IMG/VR virus record: IMGVR_UViG_2872698443_000008 | Origin: a virus | Lineage: Duplodnaviria > Heunggongvirae > Uroviricota > Caudoviricetes | DNA: 42,559 nucleotides | Direction: 5' to 3' (one strand) | Shown: one piece after another, positions 35,230 through 41,191 of the stretch | How positions within the stretch are numbered: the stretch's first letter is position 1 | Layout: every line of letters starts with the position of its first letter | Notes under the pieces: model-generated | Told to the model about the DNA's origin: nothing | Databases searched by the model: none | What the model saw: only the letters and a program-made list of their open reading frames with translations | Made by a program: the position numbers and the translations under genes

Positions 35230-35568
35230 CTATTTCCCTGAATTTACGACGAAACTGTTCGAGCGGGCTGAAGCACTCATGCTCATAACCTTCGCGGAGG
35301 TAGATAACCCGTTGTGTTTCCGGCTCCCAACGAATGACTCTGACGGGCACTCCGTAGTGATCTTTGAACCAGCGGTTAACTTGTCGCAAAGGACTGTCTC
35401 CTTCTGCCGGTTGAAATCACCCACAGCCCACTCTGCAAAGCTGTGGGTTACAATTTCCCTGTCACCTGGTACATTTACTGCATAGCAATACTCCACCTTC
35501 GCTTTTCCACCCGGTACAGGAAGCGCAATCAGTTGCGAGCGACGGTAGTGTGTTGTTAAACTGTTCAT
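35230..35568 (-). CDS. Hypothetical protein
   Basis: 112 aa ORF translationally coupled to flanking genes. Confidence 0.4.
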
Positions 35569-36128
35569 GCGTTAGTTTCTCCACAGTCACGACACGCCAC
35601 GGCGCCCGGAGCTGCACACTCGCGGGCGTCATTACTTTCTGAAATGCAAAAAATTTTGTAGACCAGTGCTGCATGCTCCTGCAGCTTCGAAATTGAGAGG
35701 TACAGCTCGTCGTTAATTGCTGTCTTCTCATGCGGTTCCACTACACCGTCTTCAATTGCTGAACGAATCTGTTTTGAATAACTGCCGATCTGTTCAATGA
35801 CTTCCAGCAGGCGCTGGTTAATATCGGCGTTGTCCACATCCTCGACGTCAGGAAGAGACACAAAGACGCCATTTGCAGACTGCGCCACAGCGTCAGCAAT
35901 GAAGTGAGTTCCACCAGCACGTTGCAAAATCATTGCCCATCCCAGCGGGAAAATCTGATCGCCATCGGCACGAAGGCGGTTAAATAATGCGTTCTCTGTT
36001 ACATCCAGCCAGTCAGCTGCTTCAGCGTAACCACCCGGCAACTTTGCGATAGTTTTTCTGACAGCTTTCACGTACCACTCAGGCTGTTTTTCTACTTTCC
36101 AGTGATGCTTACCCACGGTTAGCCTCAT
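35565..36128 (-). CDS. CII-position protein, tentatively YdaT-like
   Basis: 187 aa immediately downstream of the Cro/YdaS-like gene; assignment by position and loose resemblance only. Confidence 0.45.
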
Positions 36129-36159
36129 CGTTCTGTGGTTAAAAATTGAAAGTGTTCTG

Positions 36160-36360
36160 CTAATCTTTCGGATAGATATCCGGTCTTAAGTCAGATTTCG
36201 TAATTGCACCTGACGTGCATTGCTCAAGTTTTTTAGCCAGCACAAAACTGGCTTTTTTATAGCCATTGAAAACCAGCCGTAAGTAGCCAGGTGTTGAGCC
36301 AACTTTTCCGGCCAACTCGCCCTGCTGTTCTTTGGTTAAAGAGTCCCAATACGCTTTCAT
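36160..36360 (-). CDS. Cro/YdaS-like HTH regulator
   Basis: 66 aa from internal ATG at 36360, MKAYWDSLTKEQQGELAGKVGSTPGYLRLVFNG...ITKSDLRPDI; divergent from the repressor gene. Confidence 0.7.
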   Translation of the reverse strand: MKAYWDSLTKEQQGELAGKVGSTPGYLRLVFNGYKKASFVLAKKLEQCTSGAITKSDLRPDIYPKD

Positions 36361-36363
36361 ACA

Positions 36364-36435
36364 ATATGTACCTCCGGTGTACATATTACATGATTGAAAT
36401 GAACCTTCAAGATACTTGTACCTTAACGGTACAAG
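36364..36435. promoter_or_regulatory. Operator region between the divergent cro-like and cI-like genes
   Basis: Two palindromes with GTAC cores: ATATGTAC-ctccggt-GTACATAT (36364-36386) and CTTGTACC-ttaac-GGTACAAG (36415-36435). Confidence 0.55.
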
Positions 36436-36450
36436 GGTTTTAATTTCGTT

Positions 36451-37125
36451 ATGAAAACAATCCATGACATCCGGCGGTCTAACGCCAGAAAACTGAGAGA
36501 TGGTGTTGGCGGGAATTCTTCCTTTGCCACTATGATTGATCGCGAGCCAACCCAGACCAGCAGGTTTATGGGAGATGGTGCTACTAAAAATATCGGTGAC
36601 AGCATGGCACGACACATCGAAAAATGTTTCGACCTGCCTGTCGGATGGCTCGATCAAGAACACCAGACAACGAACATCACAAAAAAACCTGATGTTTCAA
36701 TCACTAATAAACAAATCACATTAGTCCCTGTCATATCATGGGTACAGGCCGGAGCATGGAAAGAAGTTGGATATTCTGAGGTTGATTTGAGCACAGCAGA
36801 AACGTATCCCTGCCCTGTACCCTGTGGGGAAATGACTTATATCTTGCGGGTGATAGGTGATTCAATGATTGATGAGTACCGCCCGGGAGACATGATTTTT
36901 GTCGATCCTGAAGTACCTGCCTGCCACGGTGACGACGTTATTGCATTGATGCACGATACAGGCGAAACCACCTTCAAAAGGTTGATAGAAGATGGGACAC
37001 AGCGTTATCTCAAAGCGTTAAACCCAAACTGGCCTGAGCCTTACATTAAGATCAACGGTAATTGCTCTATAATTGGTACAGTGATTTTCTCAGGAAAACC
37101 AAGAAGATACAAAATCAAAGCCTAA
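36451..37125 (+). CDS. CI-like repressor with S24 (LexA-type) autocleavage domain
   Basis: 224 aa; C-terminal ...RVIGDSMIDEYRPGDMIFVD...TTFKRL... (Ser/Lys dyad context). Confidence 0.8.
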   Translation: MKTIHDIRRSNARKLRDGVGGNSSFATMIDREPTQTSRFMGDGATKNIGDSMARHIEKCFDLPVGWLDQEHQTTNITKKPDVSITNKQITLVPVISWVQAGAWKEVGYSEVDLSTAETYPCPVPCGEMTYILRVIGDSMIDEYRPGDMIFVDPEVPACHGDDVIALMHDTGETTFKRLIEDGTQRYLKALNPNWPEPYIKINGNCSIIGTVIFSGKPRRYKIKA

Positions 37126-37139
37126 TCAATGTTTATGAA

Positions 37140-37160
37140 CCTGCTTCGGCAGGTTTTTTT
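37140..37160 (+). terminator. Intrinsic terminator after the repressor gene
   Basis: CCTGC-TTCG-GCAGG followed by TTTTTTT. Confidence 0.7.
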
Positions 37161-37164
37161 ATAC

Positions 37165-37197
37165 TTGACAATGTACCTTTGAGATACATAATGTACC
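37165..37197 (+). promoter_or_regulatory. PL-like promoter with operator-like repeats
   Basis: TTGACA (37165-37170), 17-nt spacer, ATAATG; two copies of AATGTACC overlapping, sharing the GTAC core of the 36364-36435 palindromes. Confidence 0.5.
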
Positions 37198-37296
37198 CAA
37201 GCGAAACAACGAACAGGCAGGACGCCCACGAAGTAGCCGCCTGGGGCATATGAAGTCCAGGATGATTCGTTAGCAACAAAAAAGCGCCCTACAGGA

Positions 37297-37314
37297 CGCT
37301 TAGCTCTTTAACAA
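37297..37314 (+). promoter_or_regulatory. boxA-like antitermination motif in the early-left leader
   Basis: cgcttaGCTCTTTAACAA matches the boxA consensus (GCTCTTTAACAA as in rrn boxA; CGCTCTT in lambda nut). Confidence 0.35.
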
Positions 37315-37359
37315 TCTGGTCCCCATCAACAAGTAACTGATAACTTGAGGAGGTGTGAA

Positions 37360-37566
37360 ATGCACAAAACAGAACCCAAAATCGTCGCGCCTGGCTACAC
37401 AGATGAGGAAATTTATGAGTGGATGACAAAGAAGCTGGCAGCTATAAACCAGCTTCGTGAAGTGCTGTCTTATCGACAGGAAACAATAGACTCCTTAAAA
37501 AAACTGGATCAGGAAATCACAGTTTTATCACAGGATGTTACTTTAGATATTGTGCAGACAAATTAG
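37360..37566 (+). CDS. Small hypothetical early protein (68 aa)
   Basis: ATG at 37360 preceded by GAGGAGG (37347-37353); first ORF after the PL-like promoter. Confidence 0.5.
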   Translation: MHKTEPKIVAPGYTDEEIYEWMTKKLAAINQLREVLSYRQETIDSLKKLDQEITVLSQDVTLDIVQTN

Positions 37567-37972
37567 GATCCCATTCATTTTCGTCAAAATTATCAAAGTG
37601 ATGAATTTGTGATCTCCAGTCTCGATAATCTAAAAATTTCTGGGCGGTTACGCTTATTTTATCAAGTGTGAGTTCATCCTGAATTGAAAGAAGAAGTTCA
37701 TCAAATTTCATCTCATTAATCTGTTTTGGCATCCAGTGATGCTTCATCAGAATAAGGTGAACCAGAGCCTTTTTCCCATTCAACTGATTATAGGGAGTGC
37801 CGAATTTCTTCCGGTGCTCATGTAAGACAAGGTCCAGAAGAGTAAGTAATGTTGCCCTTGATTCAACTTTGCTTATTTCGACTGATGACACTACCCCACT
37901 GATTTCAATGCCCCGATACTTTCCAACATTTTCACAGTGGGATTTGTACAGCGTGTAGATATTACCGGACAT
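37538..37972 (-). CDS. Low-GC hypothetical protein transcribed against the early-left operon
   Basis: 144 aa ORF, AT-rich, AAAGGA before ATG; direct repeats immediately upstream. Confidence 0.55.
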   Translation of the reverse strand: MSGNIYTLYKSHCENVGKYRGIEISGVVSSVEISKVESRATLLTLLDLVLHEHRKKFGTPYNQLNGKKALVHLILMKHHWMPKQINEMKFDELLLSIQDELTLDKISVTAQKFLDYRDWRSQIHHFDNFDENEWDPNLSAQYLK

Positions 37973-37987
37973 TTCTTTTCCTTTTGC

Positions 37988-38039
37988 GTTGTTGGGGATA
38001 ACCAGATTAACCGAATCCTTGTTGTTGGGGAATAACCAG
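37988..38039. repeat. Two direct repeats upstream of the antisense gene
   Basis: gttgttggggataaccag (37988-38005) and gttgttggggaataaccag (38021-38039). Confidence 0.6.
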
Positions 38040-38099
38040 GTCCACCTCGCCTGATGTGGCTAAAAGCAGGCACATAACAGCTAAGTATTTTTAACCAGA

Positions 38100-38470
38100 G
38101 AGAATCCTTAGCGTTGTGGTGAATGCGGCTCAGCGCACGCGGGTTAAGGTTGAGGCTGACAGTCGACCTTCTGTGGATACCCACCCGTCTGGTGTGCAAC
38201 CTTCGCCAGGCACCGGGAGGCACCCGGCACCACAACTTTATGCTGTGTGTAGTCCTGGAGGTACCAGTTTGTACCCTTGCTTCCGGCTGGTACCGTCCTT
38301 TTTACAAAACAGAGAAGAGCATCACCGGACGACGGGCTCATAACCCAATCCATCCGGGCGGCTGCCACCGCAGGTGTTCTTCTCTGTTTTGTGGAGAAAC
38401 TAACCGCCCCTACGGGGGCATTCATGGAAATGTAATTGACTCAATAATCGCCGGACGGTGAGGGCTTCCT
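38100..38470 (+). other. GC-rich non-coding region with nested inverted repeats (candidate structured RNA)
   Basis: No protein-like ORF on any strand. TTGTGGTG (38114-38121) pairs with CACCACAA (38228-38235); AAGGTTG/CAACCTT nested inside; AAAACAGAGAAGAG (38301-38314) pairs with CTTCTCTGTTTT (38377-38390). Confidence 0.3.
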
Positions 38471-38516
38471 TTTACCCGAATTCAGCGCGGTGCAGCGCAT
38501 ATACGTGGAGAACAAA

Positions 38517-39053
38517 ATGTCATTTATTAAAACTTTTTCCGGGAAGCATTTTTATTATGACAGGATAAATAAAGACGACATCGTTATTAACGATATCGCG
38601 GTTTCCCTTTCAAATATCTGTCGCTTTGCAGGACATCTTTCACACTTCTACAGTGTCGCCCAACATGCGGTGCTTTGCAGCCAGCTGGTGCCGCAGGAAT
38701 TTGCTTTTGAAGCTTTAATGCATGATGCAACAGAAGCATATTGCCAGGACATCCCCGCACCACTGAAACGACTTCTTCCTGACTATAAACGTATGGAAGA
38801 AAAAATAGACGCCGTAATCCGTGAGAAATACGGGTTACCTCCTGTTATGAGCACGCCAGTGAAATATGCCGATCTCATTATGCTGGCAACCGAACGCCGC
38901 GATCTCGGGCTTGATGATGGCTCTTTCTGGCCTGTACTGGAAGGTATCCCGGCAACAGAGATGTTCAAAGTGATTCCACAGGCACCGGGCCATGCCTACG
39001 GGATGTTTATGGAACGTTTTAACGAGTTATCGGAGTTACGCAAATGCGCATGA
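38517..39053 (+). CDS. HD-domain phosphohydrolase (YfdR-like 5'-deoxynucleotidase)
   Basis: Start at MSFIKTFSGKHFYY; H...HD motif (AQHAV ... ALMHDATEAY). Confidence 0.75.
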   Translation: MSFIKTFSGKHFYYDRINKDDIVINDIAVSLSNICRFAGHLSHFYSVAQHAVLCSQLVPQEFAFEALMHDATEAYCQDIPAPLKRLLPDYKRMEEKIDAVIREKYGLPPVMSTPVKYADLIMLATERRDLGLDDGSFWPVLEGIPATEMFKVIPQAPGHAYGMFMERFNELSELRKCA

Positions 39054-39406
39054 ATGTTTTCGAAATGGAAGGGTTTCTTCGTGGGAGATGTGTACCGCGA
39101 GATCTGAAAGTGAATGAAACAGATGCTGAATACCTGGTACGTAAATTCGATGCGCTTGAAGCTAAATGTACAGCACTGGAAAACAAAGTAATACCAGTGT
39201 CAGCTGAACTGCCGCCAGCAAATGAAAGTGTTCTGTTATTTGATGCTAATGGAGAAGGCTGGCTGATTGGCTGGCGTTCTCTCTGGTACACCTGGGGACA
39301 AAAAGAAACCGGAGAATGGCAGTGGACATTTCAGGTCGGGGACCTTGAAAACGTCAATATCACTCACTGGGCAGTAATGCCAAAAGCACCGGAGGCTGGA
39401 GCATAA
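39044..39406 (+). CDS. Hypothetical early protein (DUF551-like)
   Basis: 120 aa, Trp-rich C-terminus; overlaps preceding gene end. Confidence 0.45.
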   Translation: MRMNVFEMEGFLRGRCVPRDLKVNETDAEYLVRKFDALEAKCTALENKVIPVSAELPPANESVLLFDANGEGWLIGWRSLWYTWGQKETGEWQWTFQVGDLENVNITHWAVMPKAPEAGA

Positions 39407-39711
39407 TGACCACTTTTACCGACAAAGAACTGATTAAAGAAATTAAAGAGCGTATCAGCAGCCTTGACGTGCGAGACGATATTGAGCGCCGTGCTTATGA
39501 AATCGCACTCCTATCTCTGGAAGTAGAACCAGATGAACGCGAAGCTTATGAATTATTCATGGAAAAGCGTTTCGGTGACTTAGTAGATCGTCGGAGAGCA
39601 AAAAACGGCGATAACGAATACATGGCATGGGATATGACTCTCGGTTGGATCGTCTGGCAGCAACGAGCTGGTATCCATTTTTCAACAATGTCACAACAAG
39701 AGGTGAAATAA
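39406..39711 (+). CDS. Hypothetical early protein
   Basis: 101 aa, acidic; ATGA-coupled to the preceding gene. Confidence 0.45.
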   Translation: MTTFTDKELIKEIKERISSLDVRDDIERRAYEIALLSLEVEPDEREAYELFMEKRFGDLVDRRRAKNGDNEYMAWDMTLGWIVWQQRAGIHFSTMSQQEVK

Positions 39712-40061
39712 TGGAGCCATACAGCCTCACACTCGATGAGGCCTGTCATTTTCTCAAGATATCCAGACCGACTGCCATTAACTGGATACGCACAGGGCGT
39801 CTTCAGGCAACACGTAAAGATCCCACTAAGAATAAATCTCCTTACCTCACAACACGACAAGCCTGCATTGCGGCTCTTCAGTCTCCGCTGCATACTGTCC
39901 AGGTGAGCGCGGGTGATGGCATAACAGAGGAAAGAAAATGTCACTCTTCCGCAGAGGTGAAATATGGTACGCCAGTTTCACATTGCCGAACGGTAAAAGA
40001 TTTAAACAGTCTCTTGGAACAAAGGACAAAAGGCAGGCGACAGAACTCCATGACAAGCTAA
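39711..40061 (+). CDS. xis: Excisionase (AlpA/Xis-type HTH)
   Basis: Start at [36 protein letters not shown]; 116 aa frame overlapping the integrase start by about 120 nt. Confidence 0.7.
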
Positions 40062-41101
40062 AGGCTGAAGCATGGCGGGTCAGCAAACTTGGTGAAATAC
40101 CTGATATAACGTTCGAGGAAGCTTGTGTCAGGTGGCTTGAAGAGAAAGCACATAAAAAATCACTGGACGATGACAAAAGCCGGATCGGATTCTGGCTTCA
40201 ACATTTCGCAGGAATGCAACTAAGAGACATTACTGAATCAAAAATTTATTCAGCAATGCAGAAAATGACGAACCGGCGTCATGAGGAAAACTGGAAACTC
40301 AGGGCAGAAGCATGCAGAAAAAAAGGGAAACCTGTTCCAGAATACACGCCAAAACCAGCGTCCGTTGCAACGAAGGCTACGCATCTTTCATTTATAAAGG
40401 CCCTACTAAGAGCCGCAGAGCGTGAATGGAAAATGCTGGATAAGGCACCAATTATTAAAGTGCCTCAACCAAAGAATAAACGGATCCGCTGGCTGGAGCC
40501 CCATGAAGCACAAAGGCTGATTGATGAATGTCCGGAGCCATTAAAGTCTGTTGTTGAATTTGCACTGGCAACAGGCTTAAGACGCTCGAACATCATCAAC
40601 CTTGAATGGCAACAAATAGATATGCAGCGCCGGGTGGCATGGATAAACCCGGAAGAGAGTAAATCAAACCGCGCAATTGGCGTTGCGCTGAATGATACTG
40701 CATGTCGCGTATTGAAAAAACAAATCGGGAATCATCACCGTTGGGTATTTGTGTACAAGGAAAGCTGTACCAAACCAGACGGAACGAAAGCGCCAACAGT
40801 AAGGAAGATGCGGTATGACGCAAACACAGCCTGGAAAGCGGCGCTGAGACGGGCTGGTATTGATGATTTCAGATTTCACGACTTGAGACACACCTGGGCA
40901 AGTTGGCTGGTTCAAGCCGGAGTCCCGTTGTCAGTGTTACAGGAAATGGGAGGCTGGGAGTCTATCGAAATGGTTCGTCGATATGCTCACCTTGCACCTA
41001 ATCACCTTACCGAACACGCACGGCAAATAGACTCGATCCTGAACCCATCGGTCCCAAATTTGTCCCAGTCAAAAAATAAGGAAGGTACTAATGATGTGTA
41101 A
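39938..41101 (+). CDS. int: Tyrosine integrase (P22 Int type, thrW-specific)
   Basis: 387 aa, [40 protein letters not shown]...; catalytic region ...[20 protein letters not shown]...VRRYAHL; ends 15 nt from the tRNA. Confidence 0.95.
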
Positions 41102-41115
41102 CTTATTGATTTAAA

Positions 41116-41191
41116 TGGTGCCGATAATAGGAGTCGAACCTACGACCTTCGCATTACGAATGCGCTGCTCTACCAACTGAGCTATATCGGC
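41116..41191 (-). tRNA. thrW: tRNA-Thr (anticodon CGU)
   Basis: Reverse complement reads GCCGATATAGCTCAGTTGGTAGAGCAGCGCATTCGTAATGCGAAGGTCGTAGGTTCGACTCCTATTATCGGCACCA. Confidence 0.9.

Follow-up and report, generated by a model that had tools for sequence, protein, structure and literature searches.

A conserved block in the early-left operon

The window analysed here is the whole 42,559-nt stretch of DNA of the virus record IMGVR_UViG_2872698443_000008 (Caudoviricetes), an SfV/SfII/SfIV-like prophage at thrW (tRNA-Thr, 41116-41191), and our subject is a conserved non-coding block at 38041-38420 on its + strand, within the early-left operon. At this locus the gene of an S24-peptidase repressor (cI, 36451-37125) and its terminator (37137-37156) are directly followed by the strong promoter TTGACA-16-CATAAT (37165-37192, + strand; 11/12 in the promoter scan), which carries a CI-type operator, TGTACC-N5-GATACA, in the spacer between its hexamers. 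Matching palindromes (TGTAC-N7-GTACA and TTGTACC-N5-GGTACAA) occupy the cI/cro intergenic region (36370-36440), and we take this promoter to be the CI-controlled pL, about 900 nt upstream of the block. Downstream follow, in order, a leader RNA (37208-37274), an open reading frame (ORF) of 68 aa, an antisense ORF of the ECs1072 family, the block, a YfbR/YfdR-like HD-domain gene, two small genes, a helix-turn-helix (HTH) excisionase-like gene (xis, 39711-40061, + strand, by family search), and int (39938-41101, by ORF list and family search). The promoter scan found no sigma-70-like promoter between pL and the block, and no candidate scoring at least 7/12 in 37960-38125 on either strand, although such a consensus scan can miss real promoters; thus, a stand-alone gene is unsupported here. 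An initial annotation, made from the sequence alone, had assigned the block to the early-left transcript, with the antisense gene on one side and the HD-domain gene on the other, and this placement is borne out by the pL promoter with its CI operator and by the lack of an intervening promoter. The same order of cI, pL, leader, block, and first early gene recurs in e14, mEp460, ST64B, and SfV. In ST64B, the whole 800 nt from cI to the first early gene are non-coding and contain three terminator-like hairpins; additional terminators are carried by the SfV and ST64B leaders, and the block is unannotated in the SfV record.

Among 42 close relatives, column identity amounts to 0.92-1.0 within 38041-38420 compared with 0.6-0.87 outside, and it is 0.66-0.73 at 37980-38040, before the left edge of conservation at 38041. 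The BLAST matches of SfII, SfV, and e14 start at query position 63, which corresponds to 38042. The GC content is 0.51-0.585 over 38000-38400 and 0.34-0.45 in the flanks, and some part of the block is present in 3213 of 5426 complete E. coli genomes. The initial annotation had described a GC-rich block with nested inverted repeats at 37980-38480 and read it as a candidate structured RNA. All repeats that it named were recovered, but its interval has to be narrowed: 38041-38420 stands, whereas 37980-38040 is poorly conserved and holds a direct repeat upstream of the antisense ORF. The inverted repeats comprise GTTGTGGTG/CACCACAAC at 38113-38121/38228-38236 (9/9 matched), GGTACCAG/CTGGTACC at 38260-38267/38287-38294, and a pair of 25-nt arms at 38304-38328/38368-38392 (84 % matched). 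The pair formerly given as TTGTGGTG/CACCACAA, enclosing AAGGTTG/CAACCTT, turned out to be a closing stem (P1) around a pseudoknot, and the AAAACAGAGAAGAG pair to be the arms of a long hairpin (38304-38392), both described below.

The + strand folds with a minimum free energy (MFE) of -147.2 kcal/mol (z = -5.18), which none of 100 dinucleotide shuffles equalled, whereas the fold of the - strand is weaker (z = -2.87 against dinucleotide shuffles). Furthermore, the core of the block, which we refer to as module A, contains many G-U pairs at which the opposite strand would show A-C mismatches, and this identifies the + strand as the RNA strand.

ORFs of 93-114 aa do cross the region, and one of them is annotated by RefSeq as a hypothetical protein in many genomes and as YmfH in the K-12 prophage e14. 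The YmfH-like ORF of the window spans 38123-38461 (112 aa), and the frame of 110-112 aa is open in most close relatives. That the region encodes a YmfH-like small protein is nevertheless most improbable. Variable columns are distributed over the three codon positions as 31/33/41 (p = 0.45), that is, with no third-position excess; frame-shifting indels occur in many close relatives and early stops in 10 of the 42; no Pfam, PHROG, or NCBIfam family matched the overlapping ORF; and the ORF is not kept in ST64B or in the other subtypes, in which the internal arms differ in sequence while their pairing stays. The earlier statement that only non-protein-like ORFs are present is right as to the missing coding signature but needs the correction that ORFs of this length, one of them annotated, cross the block, and neither codon positions, indels, nor protein families betray a gene that a corrected frameshift would restore. 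In favour of a protein, a ymfH clone has a phenotype, as it triggered the retron-Sen2 toxin RcaT in a screen (bioRxiv 10.1101/2020.06.22.160242). This phenotype is equally explicable as an RNA effect, and given the evidence against coding, the retron trigger may indeed be one.

The poorly conserved stretch to the left of the block contains the direct repeat GTTGTTGGGGA(A)TAACCAG in two copies within 37985-38046, upstream of the antisense ORF; a repeat search gave a direct repeat of 19 nt at 37994-38046, whose two copies agree to 79 % and are separated by 34 nt. The antisense ORF itself (37538-37972, - strand, 144 aa) matches the ECs1072 family (NF033230, phrog_5286) in NCBIfam and PHROG; it had no PADLOC match, and no consensus promoter was found for it. 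PADLOC and NCBIfam likewise revealed no defence system among the neighbouring ORFs.

Architecture and relatives of module A

Module A (38113-38236, + strand, 124 nt) was delineated by a sub-threshold Rfam match, a covariance model, and covariation. It consists of five helices arranged round one junction with linkers of 0-3 nt, plus a pseudoknot. The closing stem P1 (38113-38121/38228-38236) is followed by AAU, by P2 (38125-38129/38135-38140), P3 (38141-38144/38183-38186), and P4 (38187-38194/38204-38211), and, after A38212, by P5 (38213-38217/38223-38227) with the loop AGGCA. The pseudoknot connects the start of the P3 insert with the P4 loop by pairing AAGGTTG (38146-38152) with CAACCTT (38197-38203).

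Covariation supports this structure of the + strand and thereby the structured-RNA reading of the initial annotation. Among 101 distinct copies, compensatory changes are seen in 29 of the 31 pairs of module A, and 97.0 % of cells form standard pairs, a figure somewhat inflated by an alignment that was fitted to the model. The margin over the controls is large, as the covariation score is 0.474 compared with 0.115 in shuffles (0/500 reached the observed value) and at most 0.09 with slid partners. Subtypes were aligned with the covariance model in place of plain MAFFT because the latter misaligned the 5' strand of P4, and P4 sequences are unrelated between subtypes. The pseudoknot occurs in 58 sequence variants with a mean best complementary run of 6.47 bp, against 4.58 +/- 0.11 for shuffled loops (i.e., about 17 standard deviations higher); reversed loops reach 4.98, and the 18 nt that come next in the insert reach 4.97. 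All subtypes have this pseudoknot in differing sequences, for instance as AGCUGGC/GCCAGCU, CAGUUAA/UUAACUG, GACUGACAAA/UUUGUCAGUC, and GUCGAU/GUCGAC. In 24 copies outside the search-pattern selection, P1 varies freely (e.g., CAGAUG/CAUCUG), and conservation of 88-100 % is seen for P5 with its AGGCA loop, for the AU behind P1, and for the GC in the loop of P2. Since every helix as well as the pseudoknot is kept by compensatory change across genera, selection must act on the fold itself. A specific partner is suggested by the near-invariance of P5 and of the junction bases.

Two side observations concern this core. In the e14 copy that is annotated as YmfH (L001 4076-4387), the P5 hairpin is damaged (CCGGGGGCACCCGA). 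The connectivity of module A is that of a class II tRNA cloverleaf with acceptor, D, anticodon, long variable, and T arms, in which the last hairpin also abuts the 3' strand of the closing stem; neither ARAGORN nor the Rfam tRNA model recognised module A as a tRNA, and its pseudoknot has no tRNA counterpart.

At the gathering threshold, Rfam gave no match in the block and found in the window the tRNA alone, in line with the earlier view that no standard family applies. This view does not extend below the threshold. A permissive search returned STnc100 (RF02076) at 38083-38305 over the full length of the model (1-206) with 38.4 bits and E = 1.2e-6; further permissive matches to STnc310, MIR1094, ftsZ-DE, PhotoRC-I, and hairpin ribozyme were discarded (E at least 0.15). 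The block shares with STnc100 the core architecture of closing stem, AAU, P2, internal hairpins, and a P5 that abuts the 3' strand of the closing stem, and it has an intrinsic terminator 3' of the core (t1, see below); a stand-alone gene with its own upstream promoter is not recognisable. A pattern scan of one genome per species yielded 59 loci in many Enterobacteriaceae genera, and a scan of viral contigs at least 120 further loci. Our own covariance model, built from the window copy, detected 105 copies in 82 sources, exactly one of them in the window, and recovered bona fide STnc100 copies that lie above the Rfam cut-off (e.g., L009 with 77.9 bits and L040 with 74.6 bits). As judged from sequence and predicted fold, module A is thus a divergent, sub-threshold member of the STnc100/PasD/EcOnc27 fold.

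The 105 copies are always co-oriented with the next gene, and their 3' neighbour is either a terminator, found within 140 nt in 52 copies, or directly a ribosome-binding site (RBS). In 25 of them, P1 is preceded by a sigma-70-like promoter, with 3-9 nt between the end of the -10 box and P1. The genes downstream encode KdgM porins, holin/lysozyme, DicB/KilR, a small lipoprotein, or the HD-domain protein. Copies above the Rfam cut-off, such as the two scored above, constitute type I and are located between Q antiterminator genes (PF03589, PF06323) and holin/lysozyme genes, some of them in tandem arrays. Some Enterobacteriaceae loci (L032 132-1632; L025 6359-7009; L034 2769-7103; L024; L055) have STnc100-type units in tandem arrays of 3-5 over a few kb, and several of these units come with a promoter and a terminator of their own. 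KdgM-family porin genes of Klebsiella, Kosakonia, Enterobacter, and relatives are preceded, at a distance of 80-220 nt, by a co-oriented type I copy (PF06178; L009, L017-L020, L026, L027, L029, L033, L035, L037, L038, L041-L046, L056, and L062), a setting that appears to be chromosomal rather than prophage-borne.

Type II copies score 29-39.5 bits, lack a promoter of their own, and sit in repressor-controlled early operons; they include those of the window, ST64B, e14, SfV, Pantoea prophages, and Qin/Rac-like operons. In one type II subtype, 11 nt separate the domain from DicF on its upstream side (RF00039, 76.7 bits) and 27-32 nt from dicB (PF05358) or kilR on its downstream side, as in the Qin/Rac-like operons of L146 (4236-4444, - strand) and L091 (4228-4466, - strand). 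Part of this 631-nt dicF-kilR stretch is matched in 4722 of the 5426 E. coli genomes, where it is mostly unannotated. Other prophage RNAs were seen in mEp460 and ST64B, whose antirepressor regions carry C4 antisense RNA and isrK-type RNAs above the Rfam cut-off (L002 1323-1511 and L003 1409-1597).

Besides module A, the block comprises a series of smaller elements on the + strand. At its left edge lies a conserved 5' flank (38041-38079, column identity 0.92-1.0) with a small CCAC...GTGG hairpin, followed by the P0 hairpin GCUAAGUAUU...AAUCCUUAGC (38080-38112), which is present in both MFE and centroid folds immediately 5' of module A, and whose pairing is kept with other sequences in ST64B (GAUAAGAGUU/AACUCUUAUC) and in the Pantoea and lambda copies (AAGAGCAUUG/CAGUGCUCUU). 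Module A is followed by the linker CUUUAUGCUGUGUGUAGUCC (38237-38256), unpaired in the predicted fold. Its motif GYWGUGUGWAGUC is kept in three subtypes, including ST64B and L180/L072, whose internal arms differ, which makes the linker a candidate seed region; within the window, no target complementary to it exceeded chance level.

The linker leads into t1 (38257-38303), an intrinsic-terminator-like hairpin with arms at 38257-38267 and 38287-38297, a stem of 8 bp, an A.G mismatch, and 2 further bp, a 19-nt loop, and a U-run at 38299-38303. Present in the predicted fold, t1 aligns to the terminator hairpin of the STnc100 model, its stem pairs covary with ST64B and e14, and most relatives have C-G at the position of the mismatch. 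A simple terminator scan missed it because the loop limit of that scan is 8 nt. Its 5' arm (38257-38271, CCUGGAGGUACCAG) nearly repeats the P5 hairpin (38213-38227, CCGGGAGGCACCCGG), a similarity that might stem from an ancient duplication or indicate that another small hairpin can form. Module B (38304-38392) is the long hairpin with 25-nt arms, which opens into a three-way junction and can be extended to 38299-38398; it is followed by UUUUGUGGAGAAAC and has a UUUU tail. Compensatory changes are present in 8 of the 52 pairs of its alifold consensus, and the sequence of the terminal hairpin differs among relatives while keeping its pairing (GCGG/CCGC, CUGUGG/CCACAG, GCUG/CAGC); module B is possibly long enough to serve as an RNase III substrate. 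The block ends with hairpin C (38405-38420, GCCCC-UACG-GGGGC), detected by hairpin scan and fold, which is variable in sequence but always kept as a hairpin: CGACCUUGCAGGGUCG in mEp460 and others, CGACCGUGCAGGGUCG in e14, and CUGGCGGUGGCAACCCGCCA in ST64B.

A further RNA element lies close to pL. The conserved leader RNA at 37208-37274 (+ strand) is predicted to fold with one hairpin inside an outer stem, both arranged around the invariant stretch GGCAGGACGCCCACGAAGUAGCC. It has 38 sequence variants in related loci, and 7 of the 16 predicted pairs show compensatory changes, which occur in the stem as well as in the hairpin. In 33 of 38 loci the element lies upstream of a window-type module A. 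At the level of a guess from its sequence and position, it might represent the antitermination element of SfV-like phages.

Several other RNA classes were considered. ARAGORN and Rfam located no tRNA or tmRNA in the block, the only hit being the tRNA-Thr at 41116-41191. A ToxI-like type III antitoxin RNA was rejected, as Tandem Repeats Finder reported no tandem repeat in 37900-38560 and the adjacent ORF has no PADLOC match. With regard to a retron msr/msd, homologues of the block occupy many unrelated genomic contexts. The proteins scanned in 35565-40061, which include those encoded at 37538-37972 (- strand), 37360-37566 (+ strand), and 38517-40061 (+ strand), matched no reverse-transcriptase family, although no search dedicated to reverse transcriptases was made.

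A proposed small RNA module within the pL leader

The best explanation of the block is that it forms, in an SfV-like prophage, the untranslated distal portion of the leader of the early-left (pL) operon and is composed of RNA modules. Beyond this, we favour, with a probability of roughly 0.55, that it is a small RNA (sRNA)-type module in the pL leader, whose tandem terminators gate the downstream genes. According to this model, the leader would be transcribed once CI repression of pL is lifted. Polymerase that stops at t1 would yield an RNA whose 5' side is then trimmed off, leaving about 220 nt with P0/A, linker, and t1, in a manner modelled on the release of DicF from the dicBF operon transcript. 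The compact pseudoknotted domain could then serve as a stable 5' scaffold or as a factor-binding site, with the linker or the variable arms carrying target specificity. The tandem terminators, in turn, would form a gate through which just terminator-resistant polymerase reaches the HD-domain gene, xis, and int, a resistance that is possibly conferred by the pL-proximal leader RNA (37208-37274). The layout of core, unpaired linker, and intrinsic terminator is that of the family's Hfq-dependent sRNAs.

A number of points weigh against this model. The data on transcripts and Hfq come from relatives (PMC8550237, PMC12711010), and with 38.4 bits the window copy stays below the STnc100 gathering cut-off of 47 bits, so that it is not a member by threshold. 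Unlike 25 of the 105 family copies, it has no directly upstream promoter, and therefore a discrete sRNA would need processing. Termination at t1 may be partial because of the A.G mismatch and only five U. Antitermination by the pL leader is a guess, as its layout is unlike that of HK022 put. In Qin/Rac-like operons, the domain stands directly before an RBS with no terminator after it, implying that the conserved core has a role independent of being the 5' part of a terminated sRNA. Last, the sRNA model names no partner for the near-invariant P5 and junction bases.

It is this latter aspect that a somewhat broader reading would explain. More than a mere scaffold of base-pairing sRNAs, the pseudoknotted core of five helices that STnc100, PasD-like RNAs, and the leader copy have in common could constitute a new class of structured RNA domain and, bound to a specific conserved partner, act in cis on prophage transcripts, which we consider rather unlikely as the full account of the block. 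RNA polymerase, a ribonuclease, a chaperone, or a small ligand would be candidate partners. If this were true, partner binding would explain why P5 and the junction are near-invariant and the arms free, and why the domain occurs in three layouts (at the 5' end of stand-alone RNAs, before pL-leader terminators, and directly before the RBS of toxic small-protein genes), and the core would act on t1 termination, on processing, and on the expression of xis/int, dicB/kilR, and lysis genes. Unlikely, too, is a version in which module A is a cis-acting sensor or effector, that is, a riboswitch-like aptamer or factor site that controls either the stop at t1/B or the way in which the downstream mRNA is used, with the "sRNA" being the terminated leader. 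The complex pseudoknotted fold, near-invariant unpaired bases, and a P5 that is almost invariant even in unselected copies would fit such a sensor, as would the co-orientation of the domain with the next gene, its frequent position at the transcript 5' end (the 25 copies with a -10 box 3-9 nt before P1), and the terminator (52/105) or RBS that follows it. However, complementarity between the 3' part of the domain and the 5' arm of the terminator shows no excess (4.36 compared with 4.62 +/- 0.14 in shuffles), so that a classical antiterminator switch is not apparent, and the genes that follow the domain are of heterogeneous kinds; on these grounds a transcriptional riboswitch was set aside. Moreover, the tandem arrays of promoter, domain, and terminator resemble sRNA genes, and the relatives are Hfq-dependent RNAs with many RIL-seq partners (PMC8550237).

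Could the block, instead, only terminate transcription or avoid Rho, as a mosaic of terminator hairpins that insulates xis/int and in which module A is what an sRNA gene has left behind, without activity? Several terminators are indeed present in the leaders of this phage group, the lambda late leader keeps just a degenerate relic of module A, and P5 of the e14 copy is damaged. Yet in the window-like group the block is conserved at 0.95-1.0 and its flanks at 0.6-0.87, and the compensatory upkeep of six pairings across genera would go unexplained, which renders mere insulation quite unlikely. Very unlikely, finally, is that module A is a processive antiterminator similar to HK022 put, bound to its own polymerase through t1, B, and later terminators. 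In favour of this, tandem terminators follow module A within an early operon, an N-like protein was not recognised from cI to int, and many family members begin at the transcript 5' end, like putL. However, its architecture is unrelated to put, and terminator-followed copies with constitutive-looking promoters occur between Q and the lysis genes, where an autonomous antiterminator would render the lysis genes constitutive; for these two reasons a put-type function of module A was rejected. In addition, the DicF terminator of dicBF-type operons lies upstream of the domain and not downstream, and a different conserved RNA occupies the site right after pL, where a put-like element would be expected.

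The STnc100-type family as such is known but functionally obscure. What is new here is the recognition of a sub-threshold variant of this prophage RNA family, its newly defined pseudoknotted architecture, and its context in an operon leader. Rfam-based annotation misses both the window-type block and the dicF-kilR copy because their scores do not reach the cut-off. Gene callers predict hypothetical proteins such as K-12 YmfH from the window-type block; its recognition as RNA removes a false protein family. STnc100/PasD/EcOnc27 RNAs thereby gain an architecture that is testable by mutation, with five helices, a pseudoknot, and an invariant P5 loop. With a related copy of module A between dicF and dicB/kilR in most E. 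coli genomes, experiments on the silencing and release of toxic and excision genes of cryptic prophages become feasible.

Comparison with known systems

Among known RNAs, the window copy is closest described by STnc100 (RF02076; EcOnc27/sRNA103), with which it shares the closing stem and AAU, a P2 with an AGCG-containing loop, P4, and a nearly identical P5 hairpin (CCGGGAGGCACCCGG in the window) that abuts the 3' strand of P1 and is followed by a linker and an intrinsic terminator. The pseudoknot is present in STnc100 copies as well as in the window group, and both RNAs are prophage-borne, in regions normally read by antiterminated polymerase. They differ in P2, which is GCG/CGC in the window but CCCC/GGGG in STnc100, and the window copy, unlike STnc100, has the extra P0 hairpin and no promoter of its own. 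Furthermore, it resides in the early-left leader after cI, whereas STnc100 is found between Q and the lysis genes or downstream of stx2; a distance of 75 nt separates STnc100 from the upstream stx2 (PMC12370729), and the sRNA EcOnc27/sRNA103, which binds Hfq, overlaps STnc100 downstream of stx2B (PMC12711010). PasD1 and PasD2 of enteropathogenic E. coli (EPEC) E2348/69 are Hfq-dependent and validated by northern blot (PMC8550237), and PasD RNAs were reported to be structurally related to STnc100 in a preprint in which the word "pseudoknot" does not occur (bioRxiv 10.64898/2026.05.13.724894). Like the window copy, they are prophage-encoded and end with an intrinsic terminator, but they are stand-alone genes near Q and lpxR, and the likeness is drawn via STnc100 alone.

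With respect to its genomic setting, the block is reminiscent of DicF in the dicBF operon of Qin, likewise an sRNA module without its own promoter in an early operon controlled by a CI-like repressor. DicF, for which the operon has no internal promoter, arises through RNase III/E cleavage of the long transcript together with termination at its own terminator (bioRxiv 10.1101/2023.04.14.536235, in which the phrase "secondary structure" is absent). DicF itself, however, is 53 nt long with two hairpins, a fold unrelated to module A, and in the dicBF operon the terminator precedes the domain, whereas in the window the domain precedes the terminator.

The put elements of HK022 are cis-acting RNAs in the early operons of an N-less lambdoid phage and, as in the window leader, lie upstream of terminators; the supplement of PMC9378689 covers HK022 templates only. 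Both putL/putR and the pL leader of the window contain CGAAC(R)G and CARGGAUGA in the same order, motifs so short that this could be chance. Whereas putL and putR fold into two side-by-side stem-loops of about 70 nt, the pL leader forms an outer stem that encloses a hairpin, and module A, as a five-helix junction of 124 nt, does not belong to put either. A parallel is also offered by the late leader of lambda (the pR'-tR' 6S RNA and the terminators before S), which is long, untranslated, and read through by modified polymerase only. It keeps a degenerate relic of module A, GTTGTGCTGAATTAAGCG...CCGGAAGCAGAACCGGATCACCA, devoid of P2-P4 and detected neither by Rfam nor by our own covariance model. 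The lambda region with this relic, after tR' (lambda 44795-44910; L064 995-1110), has a flank, CACAACAGGTAAGAGCATTG...GTGCTCTTTCCGTTGTG, in common with the Pantoea copies (L022, L053).

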